A program made the position numbers and the translations under genes. From contig SCQK01000014.1 in assembly GCA_004321885.1 (NCBI GenBank), positions 32,001 to 96,000 of the forward strand: DNA of 64,000 nucleotides, written 5' to 3'. Below, in pieces: positions 1,173 to 63,802 of this stretch. How positions within the stretch are numbered: the first letter of the stretch is position 1; every line of letters begins with the position of its first letter. Under the pieces are notes generated by a model. That model had not been told where the DNA came from, searched no databases, and saw only the letters and a list, made by a program, of their open reading frames with translations. The stretch is from Patescibacteria group bacterium. Its GTDB lineage: Bacteria > Patescibacteriota > Patescibacteriia > Magasanikbacterales > GWA2-37-8.

Positions 1173-3869
1173 ATGAAAGAACTTCCAAAGGCCTACGAGC
1201 CGCGAAAATACGAGGATAAGATATATGAACGTTGGGAAAAGAGCGGGTTGTTCAACCCCGATGTTTGTGTGGAAAAAGGCGTTGCCGATAAGAAGGCGAA
1301 GCCGTTTTCCATTGTCCTGCCTCCGCCCAACGTGACCGGCACCTTGCATTTGGGCCAGGCCTTGATGCTGTCGGTGCAGGATTTGCTGGTTCGTTATCAC
1401 CGCATGAAGAGCGACAAGACCTTGTGGGTGCCGGGCACTGACCACGCGGCAATTGCCACGCAGACCAAAGTGGAGAAATTGCTGATTCAGCAGGGGGTGA
1501 AAGACCCGCGCGCTGAATTGGGCCGGGAAAAATTTTTGAAAGAAGTAAACAAATTCGCGCAGGAATCGCACGATATCATCGTGAACCAGTGCCGCAAAAT
1601 GGGCGCGTCCTTGGATTGGACGCGTGAGGCCTTTACTTTGGACGAGCAAAGAAATCTGGCCGTGCGCACGATGTTCAAGATGATGTACGACGACGGCCTT
1701 ATTTACCGCGGCCATCGCATTGTAAACTGGTGCCCGCGTTGTCATTCCACTCTGGCCGACGACGAGGTGGAGTACAAAGCCCAGGCCGGCAAACTTTACA
1801 CTTTTAGATACGCCGATGATTTTCCTTTTGCCATTTCCACCACCAGGCCCGAAACCAAGCTGGGCGATACGGCCGTGGCCGTAAACCCGAACGACGAGCG
1901 CTATAAAAAATATATCGGCAAAGTTTTTGAAGTAAAAAAATTCGCGGGCGGACCGGATTTGAAAATAAAAGTGATTGCCAGCGAAGACGTGGACACAGAC
2001 TTTGGCACGGGCGCGCTTGGCGTTACTCCGGCGCACAGCTTTGCTGACTATGAAATGGCGCAAAAAAATAAATTGCTGGTGATTAAAGTGATTGATGAAG
2101 ACGGGAAAATTACCAAAGAGGCCGGCAAGCATTATAAGGGGTTCACGGTTTTGGAAGCGCGGGCGCGGGTGCTGGAAAACCTGCGCGAATTGAATTTGCT
2201 GGAAAAAGAGGAAGATGTTTCCAATAATTTATCTGTTTGCTATCGCTGTGAAAGTCCGGTGGAGCCTATTCCCTCCAAGCAGTGGTTCATAGACGTGAAC
2301 AAGAAATTCAGAATCAAGAATGAAGAATTAAGAATAAAGGGATTGAAAGTGAACAGCGAAGTGACGTTGAAACAATTGATGTCGGTCGCGGTGAAAAATG
2401 GACAGATAGAAATTATTCCGGACCGCTTCAACAAAACTTATTTTCATTGGATAGACAATTTGCGCGACTGGTGTATCAGCCGGCAAATTTGGTACGGCCA
2501 CCAGATTCCGGTGTGGTACAAAGGCGAGGAAATTTTCGTGGACGTAGAGGCGCCAAAGGGCGATGGCTGGGCTCAAGACCCAGATACGCTGGATACCTGG
2601 TTCAGCTCTGGCCTGTGGACTTTTTCCACACTTGGCTGGCCCGACAAGACCGATGACTTGAAAAATTTTCATCCCACCTCGGTGATGGAAACCGGTTATG
2701 ATATTTTATTTTTTTGGGTGGCGCGCATGATTTTGATGACGACTTACGCGTTGGGCGATATTCCTTTTGAAAAGGTTTATCTGCACGGTTTGGTGCGCGA
2801 CGAGCAGGGGCGCAAAATGAGCAAATCGTTGGGTAACGCGATTGACCCGCTGGACATGATAAGAGAGTATGGAGCCGACGCCGTCCGCCTGTCGTTGCTT
2901 ATTGGCACCAGCCCGGGCAATGATATGAAGCTGTCGGTGGAAAAAATCGCTGGTTTTCGCAATTTCACCAACAAGCTGTGGAATATCTGCCGGTTTATGC
3001 TGATGAACATCGGCAAGGATGTCATTCTGACCCCGACTCAGTCGGGGGAAGAATCCCTTTCAAAAACCCTGGCCGACAAGTGGATTTTGAATCGGTTGCG
3101 CGCAGTAATTAATATTGTCACAGAAAATATTGAAAAGTTTAATTTTTCTTACGCCGGAGAGCGTCTGCGCGATTTCACCTGGGGCGATTTGGCGGATTGG
3201 TATTTGGAGGTCGCAAAAATAGAAGGTGATAAGTCGGAAATCTTAAATTACATTTTAAGCGTGATTTTGAGACTTTGGCACCCGTTCATGCCCTTTGTCA
3301 CCGAACAAATTTGGCAGGATATTTATGGGAAAGAAAAAATGTTGATGGTGGAAAAATGGCCGGAAAAAATTAAATCGTTAGTTGATTCTTCACTCATCGG
3401 GATGACTGATTTTGATTATGCGAGAAATATAATTTTTCAACTTCGCTCATTGCGAGCTGAATATAAAATTGAACCGACAAAAAAAATAAATGTCGCAATC
3501 AGCGCGGGCGCTAAAGAACAAATTTTGAAGGATAACAAGGAGATGATCGTTAAAATGGCTAAAATTGATAATTTGATAATTGGAAAAGAGGTAAAAAAAC
3601 CGATAAACGCAGTTACATTTTTTGAACCGCCATGTGTTACTGTTTTTATGGACCTGGCTGGTTCGGTGGATTTGGTCAAGGAAAAAGAACGGCTGAAAAA
3701 AGAAATTGAGCAAACGGAAAAATATGTGGAAATACAAAAGAAAAAATTAGCCAACAAAGAATTCGTGGCAAACGCCCCCGCAGAAATCGTGGAAAAAGAA
3801 CAGCAGAAACTTTCTGAATGTGAAGCGAAGCTGGGGAAATTAAAAAATCAATTGAAGAGTCTAAAATGA
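1173..3869 (+). CDS. valS: Valyl-tRNA synthetase
   Basis: 898 aa. HIGH-type motif PPPNVTGTLHLGQA, KMSKS (GRKMSKSLGN), C-terminal coiled coil typical of ValRS. Confidence 0.95.
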   Translation: MKELPKAYEPRKYEDKIYERWEKSGLFNPDVCVEKGVADKKAKPFSIVLPPPNVTGTLHLGQALMLSVQDLLVRYHRMKSDKTLWVPGTDHAAIATQTKVEKLLIQQGVKDPRAELGREKFLKEVNKFAQESHDIIVNQCRKMGASLDWTREAFTLDEQRNLAVRTMFKMMYDDGLIYRGHRIVNWCPRCHSTLADDEVEYKAQAGKLYTFRYADDFPFAISTTRPETKLGDTAVAVNPNDERYKKYIGKVFEVKKFAGGPDLKIKVIASEDVDTDFGTGALGVTPAHSFADYEMAQKNKLLVIKVIDEDGKITKEAGKHYKGFTVLEARARVLENLRELNLLEKEEDVSNNLSVCYRCESPVEPIPSKQWFIDVNKKFRIKNEELRIKGLKVNSEVTLKQLMSVAVKNGQIEIIPDRFNKTYFHWIDNLRDWCISRQIWYGHQIPVWYKGEEIFVDVEAPKGDGWAQDPDTLDTWFSSGLWTFSTLGWPDKTDDLKNFHPTSVMETGYDILFFWVARMILMTTYALGDIPFEKVYLHGLVRDEQGRKMSKSLGNAIDPLDMIREYGADAVRLSLLIGTSPGNDMKLSVEKIAGFRNFTNKLWNICRFMLMNIGKDVILTPTQSGEESLSKTLADKWILNRLRAVINIVTENIEKFNFSYAGERLRDFTWGDLADWYLEVAKIEGDKSEILNYILSVILRLWHPFMPFVTEQIWQDIYGKEKMLMVEKWPEKIKSLVDSSLIGMTDFDYARNIIFQLRSLRAEYKIEPTKKINVAISAGAKEQILKDNKEMIVKMAKIDNLIIGKEVKKPINAVTFFEPPCVTVFMDLAGSVDLVKEKERLKKEIEQTEKYVEIQKKKLANKEFVANAPAEIVEKEQQKLSECEAKLGKLKNQLKSLK
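3031..3047. repeat. Perfect palindrome CCCCGAC-TCA-GTCGGGG inside valS
   Basis: Read directly: ccccgactcagtcgggg, encoding ...TPTQSGEE.... Same CCCCGAC/GTCGGGG arms as the 38-nt element and the pseudo-tRNA hairpin. Confidence 0.6.
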
Positions 3870-34400: not shown

Positions 34401-34459
34401 GAACCCGCGGCCTCCCCGACGTACCGTCGGGGCGCGCTACCAACTGCGCTACAGCCCGA
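34401..34459 (-). pseudogene. Partial tRNA-Pro copy (acceptor 5' strand + D-arm + T-arm start) with anticodon arm replaced by CCCCGAC-GTACC-GTCGGGG hairpin
   Basis: 28 nt (34432-34459) identical to the 5' portion of tRNA-Pro (34082-34109) and gaacccgcggcc (34401-34412) identical to 34055-34066. No 3' acceptor strand. Confidence 0.6.
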
Positions 34460-34620: not shown

Positions 34621-34643
34621 CCTCCCCCTTTTAAGGGGGGAGG
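34621..34643. repeat. GC-rich palindrome CCTCCCCC-TTTTAA-GGGGGGAGG upstream of pilT start
   Basis: Member of the CTCCCC-TTAxAAA-GGGGAG family. Lies in the N-terminal extension of the track ORF before MNIESY. Confidence 0.55.
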
Positions 34644-36361: not shown

Positions 36362-39300
36362 ATGCGAAGAGCGAAAATAATATTTTTCATTATTATCTTC
36401 GCCGCGTTCAGCTCGGCCGCCTTTGGCGGTCGTGTTTTGTCTTTTGACACCAATATCGCTCATCCAAACATCGCGACATTGGCCGTAAAGCTTTACAATG
36501 AGAATTTTGACCCGGATTTAACCGAGGAACAGACGCGTTGGATAGAGCAGGGAGCTGTTGCCGAGGACACGCCCAACCGGTGGTACAACCATTTTTACGA
36601 CCCGGTCTACAATCGTGGCATCTGGTTTGGCAAACAACATTTATCAGCCAAAAATTGGGCTGTTAATCCCCGAGCTCAAACTGGTTTTGCCTTGGGCGAC
36701 AAGAGCTGGCAAAGAGCGCTTGATGATTTTAGAAATAGTGATGAGGAAAAGGCATACAGGGCCCTGGGGCATATTATTCACCTTATTTCAGATATGGCTG
36801 TGCCGGCGCATACCCGAGACGACATTCATCCGCTCGGCGATTCGTTTGAGCAATTTGTGAAAAAGAATTGGGCCAGCGCGACAAAGAATTTGCGCTATGG
36901 AATGATATCTGTATCTGATTTAGATTCAGCTTTTGATTCTGTGGCCAATTATTCAAACAATAATTTTTATAGTGATGATACGATTGAAAATAAAAAATAT
37001 CAGAATCCAGATTTGAATCACATTATACTAAAATATGTGGAAGTTGGAAATGGCATTTCTTATAAATTTTTAGTCAATTCAGTTGGTGGTCAAGAAAGTT
37101 TGCTTTGTAGAACTAATAGCAATAAGAATTGGTTAGACACTCTTGGGGATGACATTCTAAAAGAGTGCAAAGTTGGTGATGATCTCGTTCTCACCGACTA
37201 CTCCCGCCACCTGCTCCCAAAAGCCATCGGTTACAGCGCCGGAATTATTAAACTATTTTTTGACCAAGCCAAGAGTGATAAGGAAGTGGGTAATTTGCCC
37301 GGCAAAAGAACTAGTTTTTCCGGATACCTTGATCAATTTCTTGGTTTCGCTGTCTCGGGAGCGGAAAAATTATACAGCGTGATTAAGATAGCGTTAGGAA
37401 TAGAGCCGGCTTATTCCGAGGGAAGCGCGGAGATTGAGGAACAAGCGCCCTCCCTCCCGCCAGAGGCAGGCAAGCATCAAGGGGAGGGAACGACCACAAC
37501 CACACCAACCACGCCAACCACGACCAACGTCGCGCAGACCACGACCAAACCCAAACCCCCCGCCACCATAAAAAAAGCGGTCGGGAGAAAGACCGGGGCG
37601 TCTGGCGCGCCGGTCGCTGGCTCCATAGTCCCCGACTTAGTCGGGGCTGTGGAGCCCAATGCCAGCACCCTGGCTCCACAGCCTCCTGCGGGGGACAATG
37701 GAGCCAGCCAAGAAGGAACGACGACCACGCCTGTGTATTTTCCTCCATCGTCAAGAGACGGGGGAGCGTATCCGCCAAATACCCCTCCCCTAATAGGGGA
37801 GGGAGATGTTGTGCCTACCACCACCCCGACACCCACCACCACCCCGTCTTCTACAACTACCCCTTCGTCCACCACCACCCCAACCCCCTCCCCCACCACC
37901 ACTCCCACCAGCACTCCGGCTCTGCCACCGCCACCGCTCGTCATCAGCGAAATCGCCTGGGCCGGCACCTCGGCCGCCAGGTCCAACAACGAATGGCTGG
38001 AGCTTTACAACAACTCCACCTCGTCAATAGATTTCACCTCGGGCTGGAAAATTTTTGTTTCCGGCGCCCAGCTCAACATCTCCAATTTTGTTAATCCAGT
38101 CATTTTACCAAAAACATATTACCTGTTGGAACGCACCGACGATTTTACGGTCAAAGAAATTTCCGCGGACGCGATTTACACCGGCGCCCTAAACAATAAT
38201 GGCGCGAAAGTGGAACTCGTCAATCCAAGCGGAGAAACCATAGACACCGTGGACGGCTCCTCGGGCTGGTTCGCGGGTCAGGCCAGTCCCAGTTACGCTA
38301 GTATGGAAAGAAAAGACCTCACCGCCAGCGGTACGAGTCCCGGCAACTGGCAATCCAGCATTGGCGGGCGCGCCACTGGCACGAGCGATGAAATGCCGCC
38401 CAAGCCCATCATGGGCTCGCCCAAACGCCCCAATTTCGGCTACATTGTGCTTACTGGTACCCAAGCCCAAACCACCCGCACACTCACCACAGACAACAGT
38501 CCCTATCTTTTGTGGAGTTACACTATTCCAGCCGGCTTTACATTAAACATCAATCCCGGCGTGGTGATAAAAAGTTACACCCAAAGCGCGGTGATGATTG
38601 TAGATGGGACGCTGAATGTTGGCGGGGGAGACAATAAAGTCATCTTCACCTCGGGCAAAGACCAGTCTTTCACCAGTCCCGACCTCAACCTGATAGACAT
38701 CAATTATCTTTGGACAACTCCCGGGCCGGCTGAAAAAGATTGGCAGGGGCTGTGGTTCAAGCCCGGCTCCCAGGGCAACATCGCCAATACAGAAATCAGA
38801 TACGCGGGCAAAGAGTTTTACCCCACCGGAGGCCCGGCCATGTCCCAGGGCATTCGCGCCGAATCCGGGCTTTCCCTATCAAACTCCACCATCGCCAACT
38901 CCGGCTCCGCGCTTATCTTTCTCCAAAATGCTTCTTCCACCATTACTAACACCAACTTCACCGGCTCCGATCTGGCCATAGAAGCCAACAATTCCCGGCT
39001 CACAATCAACGGCGCGCACTTCACGGGCTTTGGCTCACAGGGCCCTTTGCAAATCAAAGACGCCTGGCCCGAATTTTCCAATCTCACCTACACCACCGGC
39101 ACTGTGCCTTATGCCCGTTTGTACATGGTAAAAACCAGCGCCCCGCAGACCACGGCCAAAAAAGAAATCAATTACCTCTTTGACAACATTGAAGTGGCGT
39201 CTTCCACCACCTTAAACATTGAACCCGGCGCCAACGTCAAAATGACCAACAGCTCCATACTCACGGTCAATGGCGTTCTCAATGCCAATGGCACGCCCAC

Positions 39301-39805
39301 CGACCCCGTCAGTATCGGTCAATTTACCCCGGCCATTCCCAATACTTTATGGGGTTCACTCTACTTCACGGGCAATACTTCCACCATCAAATACACCAAC
39401 ATCTCTGGCGGCGGGCACATACCATCGGGCAGTGGCGTATTCGGCGCCATCACGGCGCAAAATGCCGAAGTCATCATTGAAAACAGCGCCATAAAAAACA
39501 CGGAACAGCCGGGCAATGCCATACAATCCGCCAACGCAGTCATTAGAATAAAGAACAGCGAGATTTCCAATGACACCAAGACGCGCGAAGACCCGCCCGC
39601 GGGCCCGTCGCCTTACAATATCGGGGTCAGCATCGGCGGCGGCAGTCTTCACCTGGACAACACCCTGTTCAAAAATCTCAACATCGGCTTGCAGGGAACA
39701 TACATATCTGGTAGTTTGCCACAGGTGGAGCTGGTCAACATGAATACATCCACTGCGTATTTTCAGAATGTGGGGCGGGTGATGAATCCGTTGGTATGGT
39801 TTTAG
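36362..39805 (+). CDS. Giant secreted surface protein: N-terminal Zn-phospholipase-C/S1-P1-like domain, P/T-rich linkers, lamin-tail domain, parallel beta-helix repeats
   Basis: Signal peptide MRRAKIIFFIIIFAAFSSAAFG. TTTTPTTPTTT and TPTPTTTPSSTTTPSSTTTPTPSPTTTPTSTP linkers. LTD motif EWLELYNNSTSSIDF...NNNGAKVELVNPSGETIDTVD. NxTIxNSGS beta-helix repeats. Confidence 0.6.
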   Translation: MRRAKIIFFIIIFAAFSSAAFGGRVLSFDTNIAHPNIATLAVKLYNENFDPDLTEEQTRWIEQGAVAEDTPNRWYNHFYDPVYNRGIWFGKQHLSAKNWAVNPRAQTGFALGDKSWQRALDDFRNSDEEKAYRALGHIIHLISDMAVPAHTRDDIHPLGDSFEQFVKKNWASATKNLRYGMISVSDLDSAFDSVANYSNNNFYSDDTIENKKYQNPDLNHIILKYVEVGNGISYKFLVNSVGGQESLLCRTNSNKNWLDTLGDDILKECKVGDDLVLTDYSRHLLPKAIGYSAGIIKLFFDQAKSDKEVGNLPGKRTSFSGYLDQFLGFAVSGAEKLYSVIKIALGIEPAYSEGSAEIEEQAPSLPPEAGKHQGEGTTTTTPTTPTTTNVAQTTTKPKPPATIKKAVGRKTGASGAPVAGSIVPDLVGAVEPNASTLAPQPPAGDNGASQEGTTTTPVYFPPSSRDGGAYPPNTPPLIGEGDVVPTTTPTPTTTPSSTTTPSSTTTPTPSPTTTPTSTPALPPPPLVISEIAWAGTSAARSNNEWLELYNNSTSSIDFTSGWKIFVSGAQLNISNFVNPVILPKTYYLLERTDDFTVKEISADAIYTGALNNNGAKVELVNPSGETIDTVDGSSGWFAGQASPSYASMERKDLTASGTSPGNWQSSIGGRATGTSDEMPPKPIMGSPKRPNFGYIVLTGTQAQTTRTLTTDNSPYLLWSYTIPAGFTLNINPGVVIKSYTQSAVMIVDGTLNVGGGDNKVIFTSGKDQSFTSPDLNLIDINYLWTTPGPAEKDWQGLWFKPGSQGNIANTEIRYAGKEFYPTGGPAMSQGIRAESGLSLSNSTIANSGSALIFLQNASSTITNTNFTGSDLAIEANNSRLTINGAHFTGFGSQGPLQIKDAWPEFSNLTYTTGTVPYARLYMVKTSAPQTTAKKEINYLFDNIEVASSTTLNIEPGANVKMTNSSILTVNGVLNANGTPTDPVSIGQFTPAIPNTLWGSLYFTGNTSTIKYTNISGGGHIPSGSGVFGAITAQNAEVIIENSAIKNTEQPGNAIQSANAVIRIKNSEISNDTKTREDPPAGPSPYNIGVSIGGGSLHLDNTLFKNLNIGLQGTYISGSLPQVELVNMNTSTAYFQNVGRVMNPLVWF
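37619..37656. mobile_element. 38-nt palindromic element GGCTCCATAGTCCCCGACTTAGTCGGGGCTGTGGAGCC inserted in frame (encodes [13 protein letters not shown])
   Basis: 100% identical, in inverse orientation, to 62514-62551 inside guaA. Both are read in the same frame by the host genes. Confidence 0.7.
37783..37803. repeat. In-frame palindrome CCCTCCCC-TAATA-GGGGAGGG
   Basis: Perfect 8-bp arms. Encodes PPLIGEG in the surface protein. Confidence 0.55.
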
Positions 39806-41298
39806 ATAAAATTTTCAAAAAAATTCAGGCAGTGGCCCAAAAAAATAAGACCCCGTGCTATGTGGTGGGCGGTTTTGTGCGCGATATGCTGATGGACAAG
39901 GCGCGGGAAAAAGACGTGGATTTTGTGATTTTGGGAAGCGGGCTGGGGTTTGCCAAAAAATTTGACCAGGCCATGAAGCAAGAGGGGAGTTTAATTGAGT
40001 TTCCGGATTTTGACACGGCGCGGTATATTTTGACCCCTTCTAAATCCTCCCCTTATCAAGGGGAGGATAACGAGCAAATCGTGCTGGAGTTCGCGGGCGC
40101 GCGAGGGGAAGAATATGACGAGAAAAGCCGCAAGCCCAGGGTAAAGCCGGCCACGTTAAAACAAGATTTAGAGCGCCGCGATTTTACCATCAACGCGATG
40201 GCCATGAGTATTGACGACTACCCCTCCGGCCGTCCGCCACAGGGCGGACGGCCGCCTCCCCTTATAAAGGGGAGGCTGATAGACCCGTTCGGCGGGCAGG
40301 AAGATTTGAAAAATAAAATTCTGCGCACGCCGCTTGACCCGGACAAAATATTTTCCGAGGACCCTTTGCGCATGATGCGCGCCGCGCGCTTCGCGGGCCA
40401 GCTTGGTTTTGCCATAGACACTTTTGCTTTGCAGGCCATTTACCGCAACCGCGAGCGCCTGAAAATCGTTTCGGCCGAGCGCGTGCAAGAGGAGCTGTTA
40501 AAAATGCTTTCCACGCCCGAGCCATCTATTTGTCTGGCTCTGCTTTTTCAAACCCACCTGTTGGATTTGGTGTTGCCAGAGGTGGCCAAGCTGGACGGGG
40601 TGGAAGAAATTTACGGCCACCAGCACAAAAACAATTTATCACACACCTTTAAAGTGGTGGACAATATCGCCGAGCGCTCGCCCAAAGTCATGTTGCGCTT
40701 TGCCGGCCTGCTGCACGACATCGGCAAGGCGTCCACTAAAAAATTTATTCCGCGTCAGGGCTGGACTTTTTACCAGCACGAGCACATGGGCAAAAAAATG
40801 GTTTATCAAATCGGCAAGCGCCTGCGCTTGTCCACGGACCACACGGATTATTTGGCCAAAATGGTGCGCTGGCACCAGCAGCCGATAAGCCTGATGGACA
40901 AGGGCATCACGGATTCGGCGGTGCGTCGCCTGATTGTGAATTTGGGTGATGAGTTGGAAGATTTGTTGATACTTGGCCGGAGCGACATTACCACGGGCAA
41001 TCCGTTGAAAAAAGAAAAACGCCTGGGCAATTACGACCGACTGGAAAAGCGCATTGCCGAGGTTTTGGAAAAAGATAAATTGCGCGCCTTTCAGTCGCCG
41101 GTGCGCGGGGAAGAAATCATGAAAGAGTGCGGCTTGAAAGCCGGGCCGACAGTGGGAAAAATAAAAGACGCGATAGAGGAGGCCATTCTTGACGGAATCA
41201 TACCAAATGAGTATGATAAAGCGAGGGAGTACTTGTTTGAAATTAAGAATAAGTATCTGGAAAAAGCCCAGGATTGGGAAAGAGTGAAAAATATATGA
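39796..41298 (+). CDS. cca: CCA-adding tRNA nucleotidyltransferase with HD domain
   Basis: VVGGFVRDMLM...DVDFV (PolyA_pol head), C-terminal HD motif FAGLLHDIGK. Contains two adjacent palindromic inserts. Confidence 0.8.
   Translation: MVLDKIFKKIQAVAQKNKTPCYVVGGFVRDMLMDKAREKDVDFVILGSGLGFAKKFDQAMKQEGSLIEFPDFDTARYILTPSKSSPYQGEDNEQIVLEFAGARGEEYDEKSRKPRVKPATLKQDLERRDFTINAMAMSIDDYPSGRPPQGGRPPPLIKGRLIDPFGGQEDLKNKILRTPLDPDKIFSEDPLRMMRAARFAGQLGFAIDTFALQAIYRNRERLKIVSAERVQEELLKMLSTPEPSICLALLFQTHLLDLVLPEVAKLDGVEEIYGHQHKNNLSHTFKVVDNIAERSPKVMLRFAGLLHDIGKASTKKFIPRQGWTFYQHEHMGKKMVYQIGKRLRLSTDHTDYLAKMVRWHQQPISLMDKGITDSAVRRLIVNLGDELEDLLILGRSDITTGNPLKKEKRLGNYDRLEKRIAEVLEKDKLRAFQSPVRGEEIMKECGLKAGPTVGKIKDAIEEAILDGIIPNEYDKAREYLFEIKNKYLEKAQDWERVKNI
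40046..40068. repeat. In-frame palindrome TCCTCCCC-TTATCAA-GGGGAGGA in cca
   Basis: Perfect 8-bp arms, encodes SSPYQGED. Confidence 0.6.
40227..40276. repeat. Tandem in-frame palindromes CGGCCGTCCGCC-acag-GGCGGACGGCCG + GCCTCCCC-TTATAAA-GGGGAGGC in cca
   Basis: 12-bp and 8-bp perfect stems sharing one G. Encode SGRPPQGGRPPPLIKGRL between conserved Cca blocks. Confidence 0.6.
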
Positions 41299-43022
41299 AA
41301 AGAAAATATTGGATTATCGGGGGAATAGTCGTGTTGGCCATCGGCGGCCTGGTTTATCGCGGCTACAAAAAAAGCCATCCGCCGGCGCAATACGAAACAG
41401 TGAAAATTCAGCGCGGGGATTTGAAACAGACCGTGGAGGTAACCGGCAAGGTGGAGGCAAACGATGATTTGTCTTTGCGTTTTGAGGTGCCTGGCACAGT
41501 GGGCAATGTGGCGGTAAAAGAAGGGCAGAAGGTTAAAAAAGGGCAGACACTGGCGTCTTTGCGTCTGGCCGACCTCAACGCGGCCGTGGCCCAGGCCGCG
41601 GCCAATTTGAACCAAAAATTAGCCGGCGCCACGCAGTCGGAACGGGATTATTACAAGGCCGTGATGGAACAGGCCCAGGCCGACTGGGATAAGGCCAAAG
41701 TGGACACGGCCGCCAGTATTGCCACAGCCGAGTCCGCGTACATCACCGCCAAAAATAATCTTAAGCTGGCCGAGGGCGGGGAAAACAGCCTCATTGTAAA
41801 TAACGCCTACGACAACGCCATCATCACGGCTCAAACTTCCCTTTCGGTTTTAGACGACGGCCTCACCCAGGCCGACAATATCTTGGGCATAGACAACACT
41901 CTGGCCAACGACAGTTTTGAAAGTTATTTATCTTTGCTTGACCTAAACAAATTAAATTTAGCAAAATCCTCTTATGCCACTGCCAAAGAAGCCAAGGCCG
42001 CGGCGCGCGCCGCGATTTCGGCTCTGGCCGTAAAAGTTTCCAGTCATAGCGATGTGGACAGCGCGCTCGTCAAAGCCGCCGATGCCGCGACCAGGATGAA
42101 TACCTTGCTTTCGCAGGTCTCGGAAGTTTTATACAACACCGCGCCCATGGGTTCGCTGACACAAGCCTCTTTGGACGCCAAAAAAACTACTATTGAAACC
42201 ACGCGCGCCAGCGTCAATGCCCAGTATAAAAAAATAGTGGAGGCCCAGCAGGCTATCGTGGACGCCAAGAGCAGTTATTCAAACTACCAGGTGGCCTATG
42301 ATAAAGCGGCCAAAGATTTAGCTGATGCCAAAGCCGCCGCCGAGAGCGCCCTTAAAATAAAAGAAGCGCTGTACAACCAGGCGTACGCGAATTGGCAGAA
42401 TAAAACTAGCCCCACCCGCGCCGTGGACGTGGCCGCCTATCGCGCCGCTCTGGCCCAGGCCGCGGCCAACAGAAACAAGGCTATCATCGCCGCGCCCATA
42501 GACGGCCAGGTGGCCAAGATAAACAAAAAAGTCGGCGAGCTGGTAACCTCGGCCGACGTGATGATAAATTTGATATCCCCGCATTTTGTGATAAAGGTGG
42601 ATGTGCCCGAGACCGATGTTTCCAAGCTGACCGTGGGCGACCAGGCGGCGATAACCTTGGACGCCTGGGGCAGTGACACAAAATTTTCCGGCGGGGTAAC
42701 GGCAATAGAATCCAATTCCACCGAGATTCAGGATGTGGTTTATTACAAGGTTAAAATTCGCATCATGCCGGCCAGCGCGCCGGTTAAAGCCGGCATGACC
42801 GCGAATATTACCGTGGACACGGATGCGCGCGCCGGAGTTTTGTTTGTGCCCCTACGCTCGGTGCGCACCGATGTGGAAGACAAGCGCTTTGTGAAGGTGT
42901 TAGAGAACGGCGAAGAGAAAGACGTGTACGTGAGATTGGGTTTGAAAGCGAATGAGGGGAAGGTGGAAATTTTAGAGGGGCTGACCGAGGGGCAGGAAGT
43001 GATTCTCTCCATAAAAAAATAA
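41295..43022 (+). CDS. HlyD/MacA-family periplasmic adaptor (membrane fusion protein) with long coiled coil
   Basis: N-terminal TM, biotinyl/lipoyl-like VKIQRGDL...GKVEA...GQKVKKGQTLASL, extended Ala/Gln-rich coiled coil, C-terminal beta-barrel. ATG 41295 overlaps the cca stop. Confidence 0.75.
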   Translation: MKRKYWIIGGIVVLAIGGLVYRGYKKSHPPAQYETVKIQRGDLKQTVEVTGKVEANDDLSLRFEVPGTVGNVAVKEGQKVKKGQTLASLRLADLNAAVAQAAANLNQKLAGATQSERDYYKAVMEQAQADWDKAKVDTAASIATAESAYITAKNNLKLAEGGENSLIVNNAYDNAIITAQTSLSVLDDGLTQADNILGIDNTLANDSFESYLSLLDLNKLNLAKSSYATAKEAKAAARAAISALAVKVSSHSDVDSALVKAADAATRMNTLLSQVSEVLYNTAPMGSLTQASLDAKKTTIETTRASVNAQYKKIVEAQQAIVDAKSSYSNYQVAYDKAAKDLADAKAAAESALKIKEALYNQAYANWQNKTSPTRAVDVAAYRAALAQAAANRNKAIIAAPIDGQVAKINKKVGELVTSADVMINLISPHFVIKVDVPETDVSKLTVGDQAAITLDAWGSDTKFSGGVTAIESNSTEIQDVVYYKVKIRIMPASAPVKAGMTANITVDTDARAGVLFVPLRSVRTDVEDKRFVKVLENGEEKDVYVRLGLKANEGKVEILEGLTEGQEVILSIKK

Positions 43023-43028
43023 ACCCCA

Positions 43029-43067
43029 CCCTGCCACCACACCAAAGATTTTGGTGTGGTGGCAGGG
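43029..43067. repeat. Strong intergenic hairpin CCCTGCCACCACACCAAA-gat-TTTGGTGTGGTGGCAGGG
   Basis: 18-bp perfect stem between the adaptor and ABC ATPase genes. Shares the CACACCAA/TTGGTGTG core with the inverted repeats bounding the tRNA-Gly intervening sequence. Confidence 0.55.
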
Positions 43068-43081
43068 GGAGGGGTATTTTT

Positions 43082-61972: not shown

Positions 61973-63802
61973 TTACTCCCACTCAATAGTTCCGGGTGGT
62001 TTGTTGGTGAGGTCGTAGAAGATGAAGTCCACGGCGTTTAGAGCGTGGATTTTTTTGATGATTTTTTTCAGAGTGGGCGAGGGTATGACGCCAAACGAGA
62101 CGGTCATCGCTTCTTCTGATTCCACGGGTCGCAGGACAATTGATTCGCCGTGCTTGTGCCCAAACGGCACGAGCACCGTGGGCATTTGCCAGATTTTTTG
62201 GCATTGCTTGTCGGTCAAAATGGCGCTGTCGGCGATGTCATCTATTTTTCGCAAAAGGTCCAGCCGTTTTTTGGTAAGATACGCTTTTTTCAGCGTGGCT
62301 TTTGGCAATGATTTTTTGTCGCCGGAAACAAGCAGTAGAACGCGGTTGATGTCTTTGTGGGCGTTGGTGATTTTAGGAGAAAGGGATTGATAATACCCCC
62401 ACCCGGCCTCCCCCTTATAAAGGGGGAGGGGACCTGTGATAACGGCGGGGTGGGCGTAGGAGCGCTCGTCGCCTTGCACGCCCACGGATTTGATGGGGAG
62501 ACGCCAAATTGTTGGCTCCACAGCCCCGACTAAGTCGGGGACTATGGAGCCAGCGTCGTTTGATCCTTCCGAGCACAGACAGCGAATGGCCAGGCCCGGG
62601 CCCGGAAAGGGATGGCGGTTTATCAATTTTTGCGGCAGACCGAGCTTAAGGCCGATGGCGCGCACTTCGTCTTTGTACAAATCCTTAATCGGCTCTATGA
62701 TTTTTCCTTCGGCGATCATTTGTTTTATCCGCGGTACGCGATTGTGATGCGTTTTTATGACGTCGGCGTTTTTGGTGCCGCCCGATTCAATAGTGTCGGG
62801 ATAAATGGTGCCTTGGCCGACCAACCATTTGTCTCCGGTCAATTTTTTTCTACCAGACCCGCCTTTGGCGGGTTCGGCCATTACTTTGTCCACAATATCC
62901 AAAAACAAATCGCCGATGATTTTTCTTTTTTGTTCCGGATCAGACACGCCTTTGAGCGCGGATAAAAATTCTTTTTCGGCGTTATACACCCGCAAGTTGT
63001 CTCCCAGTCGCTTCAGAGCCGCTATGATTTTTTTTGTCTCATCCAACCGCATCAGGCCGCTGTCAATGTGCAAGCCGAAAACCCTTTTTTCGCCAAGCAC
63101 TTTTCGCAATAGGGCGAAACAAACCGTGGAATCAACGCCGCCGGAGACGAGCAAGAAAACATTTTTACCGCCCGCTTCCTTTTTTATATTTTTTTCAATT
63201 TGATCCAGCATTGTCTCTGTCGTCCAGTTTTTTTCCGCCCCGCAAATATTTAAAATAAAATTGGCCAGAATTTTTTTTCCTTCTTTCGTGTGATTTACTT
63301 CCGGATGAAACTGAAAGCCGAAGAACTTTTTTGATAAATTTTGCATGGCCGCCACCGAACGGTTGCCGGTTGAAGCGATTGGCGTAAAACCGAACGGCAG
63401 TTTGTCCACGTGATCGCCGTGGCTCATCCAGACAACGGTATTTTTACTTACGCCCGAAAAAATCGGCGAGGCGCTGACGGATAATTTCGCCAAACCGTAT
63501 TCACGCGCCTTGCCCGATTCAACGCGCCCGCCAAAAAAATCTGCCATCAACTGATGCCCGTAGCACAGACCCAAAATCGGCGCGCTGAGCGTAAAAATTT
63601 TTTTATCAAAAGGCAAACGCGCGTCGCGCACCAGCGAACGCGGACCGCCGGAAAGGATGATTCCACACGCGTTTTTCAATCGTTCGGCTTTGACGTTATT
63701 CGGGTAAATACGTGAAATAACGCCCAGTTCGCGCACGCGACGGGCGATGAGATGGGTGTACTGGGAACCGAAATCAAGGATGGCGATTTCACTTTTTGGC
63801 AT
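61973..63802 (-). CDS. guaA: GMP synthase (glutamine-hydrolysing), with in-frame palindromic inserts
   Basis: GATase [22 protein letters not shown]...GLCYGHQLM...HGDHV. ATP-PPase [14 protein letters not shown]-terminal dimerisation domain. ATG 63802. Confidence 0.85.
62407..62429. repeat. In-frame palindrome CCTCCCCC-TTATAAA-GGGGGAGG in guaA
   Basis: Encodes (minus strand) [11 protein letters not shown]. Confidence 0.55.
62514..62551. mobile_element. Second copy of the 38-nt palindromic element (encodes [13 protein letters not shown] in guaA)
   Basis: Reverse complement is identical (38/38) to 37619-37656. The flanking CGCTGG is also shared. Confidence 0.7.

Follow-up and report, generated by a model that had tools for sequence, protein, structure and literature searches.

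A 38-nt palindrome inside the GMP synthase gene of a Patescibacterium is very probably a REP-type hairpin of a transposase-associated repeat family spread across Patescibacteria

How does an intact gene for an essential enzyme come to contain a short palindrome that recurs, letter for letter, in an unrelated gene nearby? This question is raised by a 64,000-nt stretch of contig SCQK01000014.1 from a Patescibacteria group bacterium (the whole stretch is called the window below), in which a 38-nt palindrome lies within guaA, the gene for glutamine-hydrolysing GMP synthase. An earlier interpretation of the window, made from its letters alone (the sequence-only reading), had described this palindrome as the exact second copy of a selfish in-frame element. 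We conclude that the palindrome is very probably the hairpin of a REP/REPIN-RAYT system, i.e. of repetitive extragenic palindromic (REP) sequences, their inverted doublets (REPINs) and a REP-associated tyrosine transposase (RAYT), and that it belongs to a family spread across the ultra-small Patescibacteria. The feature in guaA is real and non-random, and it is explained as a RAYT-associated REP hairpin inside an essential gene. The earlier account had recognised a repeated element of mobile type, which holds, and had missed its identity as a RAYT-associated REP hairpin.

The element at 62514-62551 reads GGCTCCACAGCCCCGACTAAGTCGGGGACTATGGAGCC on the plus strand and is indeed the exact reverse complement of 37619-37656. 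At up to three mismatches the 38-nt sequence has two matches in the window, compared to none expected from 100 shuffles. The identity between both copies reaches 4 nt beyond the 38 nt, giving a shared unit of 42 nt (37615-37656 and 62514-62555, 100% identical). This changes the view of the reading frame: 38 nt, previously taken as an in-frame unit, is not a multiple of three, whereas the 42-nt unit corresponds to 14 codons, encodes the same 14-residue peptide in both copies, and leaves an in-frame GAA-ACA-ATT-TGG in guaA when removed in silico. Both copies lie within long open reading frames (ORFs) and agree in orientation and frame with respect to the coding strand. The 609-aa guaA frame is open, as claimed, and its product is 100% identical to TAN32702.1. 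The flanking residues had been misassigned: the element follows CLCSEGSND, and the neighbouring sequence named before adjoins a second palindrome in the same gene. The first copy at 37619-37656 was correctly located, its partner hairpin at 37672-37705 having been omitted. This partner has the outer arms of the first copy and a different core, and the stretch 37616-37708, flanked by GCT...AGC, is a REPIN-like inverted doublet of 93 nt, or 31 codons, in frame. The 64-kb window thus contains three hairpins with a common outer stem, all three of them intragenic, and the 7-mers GGCTCCA and TGGAGCC pair in the window only within these three.

A scan of contigs, with one genome per species, for the pattern GGCTCCAYAG-N10-30-CTRTGGAGCC returned at least 116 stretches, mostly from Patescibacteria metagenome-assembled genomes (MAGs). 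The 151 matches listed, among them some in Magasanik-, Falkow-, Kuenen-, Doudna-, Morani-, Peregrini-, Pacei- and Saccharibacteria MAGs, reveal a clear family with a total hairpin size of 30-49 nt and the consensus GTT/GCT-GGCTCCATAG-[variable inner stem-loop]-CTGTGGAGCC-N4-TGCA. The constancy of the 10-bp outer stem (GGCTCCAYAG/CTRTGGAGCC) is demanded by the search pattern; the conserved flanks lie outside it. Of 107 listed asymmetric copies, 48 have GTT and 25 have GCT as their 5' flank (together 73/107), and the 3' positions 5-8 are T in 80, G in 74, C in 62 and A in 54 copies, hence N4-TGCA. The inner stem-loop varies in size and shows compensatory pairs (CCC/GGG, GGC/GCC, CTC/GAG, CCCCGAC/GTCGGGG), a covariation judged by direct reading with the outer stem fixed by the pattern and the inner stems in differing register.

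Two stem positions are asymmetric in a fixed manner in these 107 copies. One strand, here called the T-form (...CCATAGT...GCTGTGG...), pairs these positions as G·T, while its complement, the C-form, has A·C mismatches. The T-form of the window element folds into a helix with hardly any interruption: the fixed outer-stem T forms a G·T wobble, and T11 is unpaired. The predicted folding energies for T-form and C-form are -16.9 vs -15.7 kcal/mol as DNA and -32.2 vs -27.9 kcal/mol as RNA. Many copies are inverted doublets, T-form followed by C-form, with spacers of 15-50 nt (at least 10 loci) and always with one hairpin of each form; the layout of the window doublet recurs in eight further loci (L008, L030, L048, L062, L072, L086, L097 and L058). 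The copy density in relatives reaches 9 copies in 6.3 kb (L058). A close relative of the window subfamily, in which only the loop differs, is found on a Hainich groundwater contig, where it lies extragenically, 10 nt past a stop codon, with the canonical GCT and TGC flanks. Coordinates of the window features, including palindromes of other families that are discussed below, are collected in Table 1.

Table 1. Positions of guaA and of the palindromes considered in the 64-kb window.
Feature	Position	Strand	Remarks
guaA, glutamine-hydrolysing GMP synthase	61973..63802	-	609 aa from MPKSEIA; TAN32702.1, 100% identical
REP-type hairpin in guaA	62514..62551	-	sense strand is T-form GGCTCCATAGTCCCCGACTTAGTCGGGGCTGTGGAGCC; 13 residues, GuaA 418-430
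Full 42-nt unit in guaA	62514..62555	-	includes conserved 5' flank (C)GCT; identical to 37615-37656
First 42-nt copy	37615..37656	+	T-form on plus strand; inside 1147-aa ORF 36362..39805; 14 residues
Partner hairpin	37672..37705	+	C-form GGCTCCACAGCCTCCTGCGGGGGACAATGGAGCC; 15 nt after first copy
Second-family palindrome in guaA	62407..62429	.	10-bp stem; tag ACCCCCACCC at 62395-62404; residues 457-467
Second-family palindrome	34621..34643	.	CCTCCCCC-TTTTAA-GGGGGGAGG, tag ACCCCCACCC; near/upstream of likely start of PilT-like ORF
Second-family palindrome	37784..37802	.	inside 1147-aa ORF; peptide PPLIGEG
Second-family palindrome	40046..40066	.	in CCA-adding/poly(A) polymerase-like ORF 39796..41298; SPYQGED; 9-aa alignment gap vs PDB 3wfo
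Second-family palindrome	40255..40275	.	in ORF 39796..41298; directly after 40227-40254; region has ~9 aa more than 3wfo
Third guaA palindrome	62857..62873	.	ACCCGCC-TTT-GGCGGGT; single copy in window

The link between these hairpins and a transposase came from two loci of the scan, L057 and L040, in which a T-form and a C-form hairpin bracket an ORF of ~180 aa with an NHIHL motif. The L057 ORF scores 103.8 bits (cut-off 80, E 7e-30) on the NCBIfam model NF047646, 'REP-associated tyrosine transposase', and also matches Pfam Y1_Tnp. A tblastn search with this RAYT found it directly adjoining hairpins in L057, L097, L040 and L010 and gave no match in the 64-kb window. At the protein level, 961 homologues were obtained at E <=1e-10; where named, they are mostly Patescibacteria proteins called 'transposase' or 'RayT'. 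Five proteins, namely the L057 ORF, P0230 (TAN32770.1), P0183, P0151 and P0177, reach 94-105 bits on NF047646. Three further cases (L117, L119/L120 and L121) were found independently, starting from RAYT proteins and proceeding to their contigs, so that hairpins flank the RAYT gene in inverted orientation, the arrangement called a REPtron, in seven loci altogether. Read along its sense strand, the RAYT gene is in every case preceded by the T-form and followed by the C-form. In L117 the T-form lies 110 nt upstream and the C-form 68 nt downstream of the gene, with no other canonical copy in 20.5 kb. In L119/L120 a doublet of T- and C-form precedes the gene and a C-form follows it, and in L121 the gene is flanked on either side by shortened variants, GGCTCCATAC-TCT-GTATGGAGCC.

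The source assembly itself encodes such a protein. P0230 (TAN32770.1), a homologue with 63% identity, has 181 aa, scores 97.1 bits on NF047646 and shows the motifs NHLHL and YIYNNPVKKG. Its best match in the Protein Data Bank is 4er8, the E. coli TnpA-REP, in an alignment that spans the YIYxNPVKxG...DW region. Because TAN32770.1 and the GuaA entry TAN32702.1 are each recorded on a contig of 159,463 bp, with accessions 68 apart, a RAYT gene probably lies a short way beyond the window on the source contig. The hairpins that flank a 180-aa gene fitting the RAYT model, together with this homologue in the source assembly, therefore argue for a REP/REPIN-RAYT system.

L119 and L120, which originate from different samples and represent two nearly identical genomes, are identical through the RAYT gene, the downstream hairpin and the trinucleotide AAC, and unrelated directly after it: the rearrangement junction is exactly at the outer boundary of the element. 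The break in synteny falls at 1872-1884 of L119 and from 1902 onward in L120, where L120 goes on with GAGATTGCAAAAGGTTCCACA, which looks like another decayed REP unit.

REP/REPIN-RAYT systems are exemplified by TnpA-REP/YafM of E. coli, with its REPs and bacterial interspersed mosaic elements (BIMEs), and by the REPINs of Pseudomonas fluorescens. The work that established them is said to include Nunvar 2010, Bertels & Rainey 2011, Ton-Hoang 2012 and Messing 2012. The Patescibacteria family resembles them in being a short (30-49 nt) imperfect palindrome repeated in the genome, in its inverted doublets (in the window, 37616-37708), in the seven RAYT loci where inverted hairpins bracket a gene of the HUH/Y1 transposase type, and in the transposase itself, which passes the curated RAYT model and has an HUH motif and a YIxxNP-type motif with the catalytic Tyr. 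G·T stem pairing and dispersed copies, mostly extragenic in relatives, complete the likeness. It differs in its Patescibacteria hosts, in that one 10-bp outer stem is shared by many class-level lineages instead of being specific to a species or genus, and in its ends: the tetranucleotide end tags GTAG or CGTC, which define REP super-families (Di Nocera et al. 2013, PMC3733652), are absent, the conserved flanks being GTT/GCT and N4-TGCA, with ATAG/CTAT located within the stem and not at its end. Of the RAYT groups described, only some are linked to repeats of high abundance (Bertels et al. 2017, PMC5581495). The literature searched contained no study of REPs or RAYTs from Patescibacteria.

The Rickettsia palindromic elements (RPEs), which were reportedly described by Ogata in 2000, and intragenic REPs of other bacteria offer a further parallel, as they too are palindromic repeats in frame within intact protein-coding genes, occur as single units or dimers of ~10-30 aa, with several inserts per gene possible, and are presumably accommodated by loops and linkers. 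Di Nocera et al. 2013 (PMC3733652) document in-frame intragenic REPs of this kind for Opitutus terrae and for Rickettsia RPE-4/6, and also treat G·T pairing in REP stems and linkers that tolerate inserts. The Patescibacteria element belongs to another sequence family and host, RPE-1 being far longer (~100-150 bp), and a RAYT is clearly associated with it, unlike the CGTC-type Rickettsia repeats, which lack a dedicated transposase (PMC3733652). With a Patescibacteria host and no Rfam or other match to RPEs, we rejected membership in the RPEs; the analogy is functional only. IS200/IS605 insertion sequences and their non-autonomous derivatives, the palindrome-associated transposable elements (PATEs), share the Y1 HUH superfamily (weak NF033573 and PF01797 matches), an enzyme that recognises a hairpin, and an expected strand-specific mechanism on single-stranded DNA. 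Their end hairpins are direct and on one strand, and the element multiplies as a whole, whereas the hairpins here are inverted; together with NF033573 scores of 20-30 bits against a cut-off of 55, this excludes membership.

REPs are predominantly extragenic. In the present family, 72 of the 99 listed asymmetric copies (~73%) lie outside ORFs of at least 150 aa, while all three window copies are intragenic. The remaining 27 (~27%) lie 30 nt or more inside such an ORF. On the sense strand, these appear as C-form in 18 and as T-form in 9 cases and in several frames; intragenic copies are not limited to one sense-strand form. L058 has a doublet/triplet inside a 422-aa glycosyltransferase-like ORF, and this ORF, guaA and the 1147-aa ORF are all open despite their hairpins. 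Insertion in frame inside genes is a known but uncommon habit of REP-type repeats.

What the element means for GuaA was assessed with 27 homologues of 55-74% identity. In this alignment, which the sequence-only reading had proposed, the element-encoded residues occur in none of the 27 homologues, as it had expected. The residues that are invariant in the 28 aligned sequences are by definition present in the intact GuaA, and the invariant columns include the catalytic motifs GLCYGH, FHPE and SGGVDS. Element residues 417-430 lie in a hypervariable linker between CLCSxGS and an 11-residue block, which comprises 11-25 aa in homologues and 17 aa both here and in the closest homologue, P0002. The statement that the element adds 12 residues was thus too strong: there is no gain relative to P0002 and a gain of ~6-7 aa relative to the shortest homologue. 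Judged by these comparisons, the linker sequence is element-derived and not a net addition. A 42-nt deletion would keep the frame but give a linker shorter than that of any homologue, and some ancestral linker was probably lost or overwritten. The linker DNA of P0002 (GGTTCCATTAACGGTTCC) forms no hairpin and gives no sign of an ancestral copy at this site. In the AlphaFold model of GuaA the mean per-residue confidence (pLDDT) is 81.9; the block 421-430 averages 61 and is mostly coil, and values below 50 are found at residues 313-317 and 461-463. The enzyme is of the long form, with its best solved-structure match to human 2vxo, including the C-terminal domain, rather than to the bacterial short enzymes.

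By analogy with E. coli TnpA-REP and IS200/IS605 transposases, the RAYT would bind the folded single-stranded hairpin, cut at the conserved flanks and join the unit into single-stranded DNA elsewhere; in this manner, the 42-nt unit may recently have been copied between the 1147-aa gene and guaA. The synteny break of L119/L120 exactly at the outer AAC could lend indirect support to RAYT cleavage at the hairpin. As the alignment and the structure model suggest, selection would retain only frame-preserving copies in tolerant, length-variable surface linkers, and the open frames of the hairpin (four of six) may help intragenic copies to persist. With open frames and selection for frame-preserving copies in tolerant linkers, the encoded peptide is therefore a passenger and not a functional motif.

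Several points weigh against the assignment to a REP/REPIN-RAYT system. The classical REP tag GTAG is absent, the flank being GTT/GCT, and the copy number in the window is low, with three hairpins in 64 kb. The placement of RAYT and GuaA on one contig rests on the equal size of 159,463 bp and the close accessions, and the association of the source RAYT with the 38-nt subfamily is deduced from relatives. No empty-site guaA allele was found and the linker is not longer than that of the closest homologue, for which reasons insertion, as opposed to replacement in place, is not directly demonstrated. To our knowledge, no organism has so far yielded an in vivo demonstration that a RAYT transposes REPs.

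Could the hairpin act primarily as RNA, for instance as an mRNA stabiliser, an RNase processing site or a translational pause site, with an incidental link to RAYT? Only one strand can form G·U pairs at the asymmetric positions, the T-form is very stable as RNA (-23.8 to -32.2 kcal/mol) and more so than the C-form, the 42-nt unit has its T-form on the sense strand in both window genes, and Di Nocera et al. 2013 (PMC3733652) read G·T pairing as a pointer to a role of REPs at the RNA level. The fixed mismatch pattern would, however, be needed just as much by a transposase that acts strand-specifically on single-stranded DNA, and inverted hairpins bracketing RAYT are what a DNA substrate would be expected to show. 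Every doublet combines a T-form with a C-form, the copies within ORFs run in either direction relative to the ORF (18 C-form, 9 T-form) and use several frames, and no Rfam family matches, so that we regard a primary RNA function as unlikely.

Alternatively, local gene conversion or template-switch ('quasi-palindrome') mutation could have created the palindromes in place, in fast-evolving linkers. Such an origin would fit a guaA linker no longer than that of the closest homologue, a third guaA palindrome (62857-62873) that is single-copy in the window, and the abundance of GC-rich perfect hairpins with stems of at least 8 bp (19 in the window vs 1-3 in shuffled sequence), many of them unique. 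This origin is plausible for the unique third palindrome only; for the 38-nt element it is very improbable, as an exact identity over 42 nt between two unrelated genes cannot arise independently, and more than 100 contigs from many lineages have this outer stem with its flanks, which also occur on either side of RAYT genes. Even less credible is a repeat kept for its 13-residue peptide by selection at the protein level. Peptide, orientation and frame are alike in the two window genes, but with four of six frames open a shared frame is about a one-in-four event, and the DNA of both copies is identical including synonymous positions. The peptide is found in none of the 27 GuaA homologues and falls into a lower-confidence, mostly coil region of the model, and other family members are ~73% intergenic or, in other frames and orientations, encode unrelated peptides. 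Selection for the peptide is effectively refuted already, and a RAYT-associated REP hairpin remains the preferred explanation.

The hairpin invited comparison with other systems. The GTT...AAC flanks suggested attC sites of integrons; GTT occurs on one side of a single hairpin only and no integrase was seen, and we rejected this candidate without a formal test. A tRNA minihelix (GGCTCCA-TA-G resembles a tRNA 5' end) was discarded, as none of the six window tRNAs lies at GGCTCCA or TGGAGCC. Rfam detected only tRNAs at gathering threshold in the window, and only sub-threshold chance matches at the hairpins in 8 loci. A scan of IMG/VR viral contigs for the hairpin gave no matches and thus no sign of a phage vector. 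The copies are single or in inverted pairs, unlike a CRISPR array; in L058 5124-5230, tandem copies are separated by identical 15-nt 'spacers'. Such tandem C-form arrays, present in L058 (5124-5230) and L056 (2480-2806) with each hairpin followed by the identical 15-nt stretch AACGATAAACATTAA, look like local amplification of REP units.

A 44-47-nt palindrome with GGCTCCAYAG/CTRTGGAGCC ends occurs in the Pseudomonas putida group (L005, L023, L024, L031, L035, L036, L045, L046, L050, L053, L070, L084, L093, L104 and L106) and is spanned by an open frame of ~350 aa at most of its loci. It shares the outer 10-mers and neither flanks nor asymmetry; it was not counted as a family member and appears to be unrelated. 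The 32-nt perfect palindromes of Brachybacterium and other isolated matches, which likewise have the outer 10-mers only, without flanks and asymmetry, were treated in the same way. Canonical hairpins were also present in MAGs labelled Nitrospinia (OFTM173: L006, L009, L027, L061, L069) and others (L043, L063, L067; L030), and two RAYT homologues with 66-71% identity (P0210, P0222) lie outside Patescibacteria labels. These labels comprise Nitrospinia, Pseudomonadota, Gammaproteobacteria, Promethearchaeota and Methylomirabilis and could reflect horizontal transfer or bin contamination.

The guaA gene contains further palindromes. The one at 62407-62429 is as previously described, with a 10-bp stem and an 11-residue peptide, and it, too, is a repeated element: it belongs to a second family, CCTCCCC-N3-9-GGGGAGG, with 5 window copies compared to 0 expected. 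In GuaA, its residues 457-467 form part of a loop of variable size among homologues. The second family occurs in 5 other Patescibacteria loci (L012, L030, L048, L049, L123), lies mainly inside ORFs in the window and mainly in intergenic regions elsewhere, and has a left tag ACCCC(C)ACCY followed by 2-3 nt in 6 of 10 copies; no associated transposase or other enzyme was identified. In the CCA-adding-like ORF, both palindrome regions coincide with gaps in the alignment to 3wfo. That guaA carries at least two palindromes is correct, the count being incomplete by the third at 62857-62873. This one sits within 8 extra residues (310-317, EPAKGGSG region) that none of the 27 homologues has, and of the three guaA palindromes it alone is a clean insertion when compared with each of them. 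Instead of being a mobile repeat, it may have originated as a template-switch quasi-palindrome.

Other palindromes were noted in passing. At 40227-40254, abutting the hairpin at 40255 in the CCA-adding-like ORF, lies a perfect palindrome with a 12-bp stem, CGGCCGTCCGCC-ACAG-GGCGGACGGCCG, which encodes SGRPPQGGRP. The hairpins at 3031-3047 (CCCCGACT-C-AGTCGGGG, inside an 899-aa ORF) and 34414-34432 (CCCCGACG-TAC-CGTCGGGG) have cores that resemble the inner stem of the 38-nt element, without its outer stem. A long palindrome at 43015-43081, with a 15-bp perfect core (CCCTGCCACCACACC...GGTGTGGTGGCAGGG) and flanking A/T runs at the end of ORF 41274..43022, looks like a terminator, with a ACCCCACCC motif inside. 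Finally, L058, from the Patescibacteria MAG138, contains two intergenic copies (900-1015 and 2115-2220) of a different palindromic repeat of ~110 nt (...TTCCCCTCT-AGAG-AGGGG...GGGGTGTGT...), resembling a miniature transposon.

In-frame intragenic palindromic repeats are already known from Rickettsia and from other REP families, and our results do not overturn the current understanding. What is modestly new is the host group, the non-GTAG signature, the conservation of the outer stem across lineages and the high load of intragenic palindromes. REP/REPIN-RAYT systems, which have been studied almost only in Proteobacteria, are thereby extended to the candidate phyla radiation. We tentatively propose, as a possibility that we rate somewhat below even, that one REP-RAYT lineage with a near-invariant 10-bp recognition stem persists throughout the Patescibacteria radiation, routinely enters essential genes of these reduced and gene-dense genomes and contributes short peptides to surface loops, and that the second, ACCCCACC-tagged CCTCCCC...GGGGAGG family is a further class without a known mobilising enzyme. 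With vertical inheritance, such a REPIN-RAYT association would be exceptional both in its depth and in the extent to which it invades proteins. The elements account for odd short GC-rich palindromic insertions in Patescibacteria proteins, which can confuse alignments, domain boundaries and structure models, and the DNA signature GTT-GGCTCCATAG...CTGTGGAGCC-N4-TGCA could serve to locate further elements of this kind and as a check on bins. Essential enzymes of these bacteria, such as GMP synthase and the CCA-adding-like enzyme, tolerate 8-31 aa of transposon-derived loop sequence.

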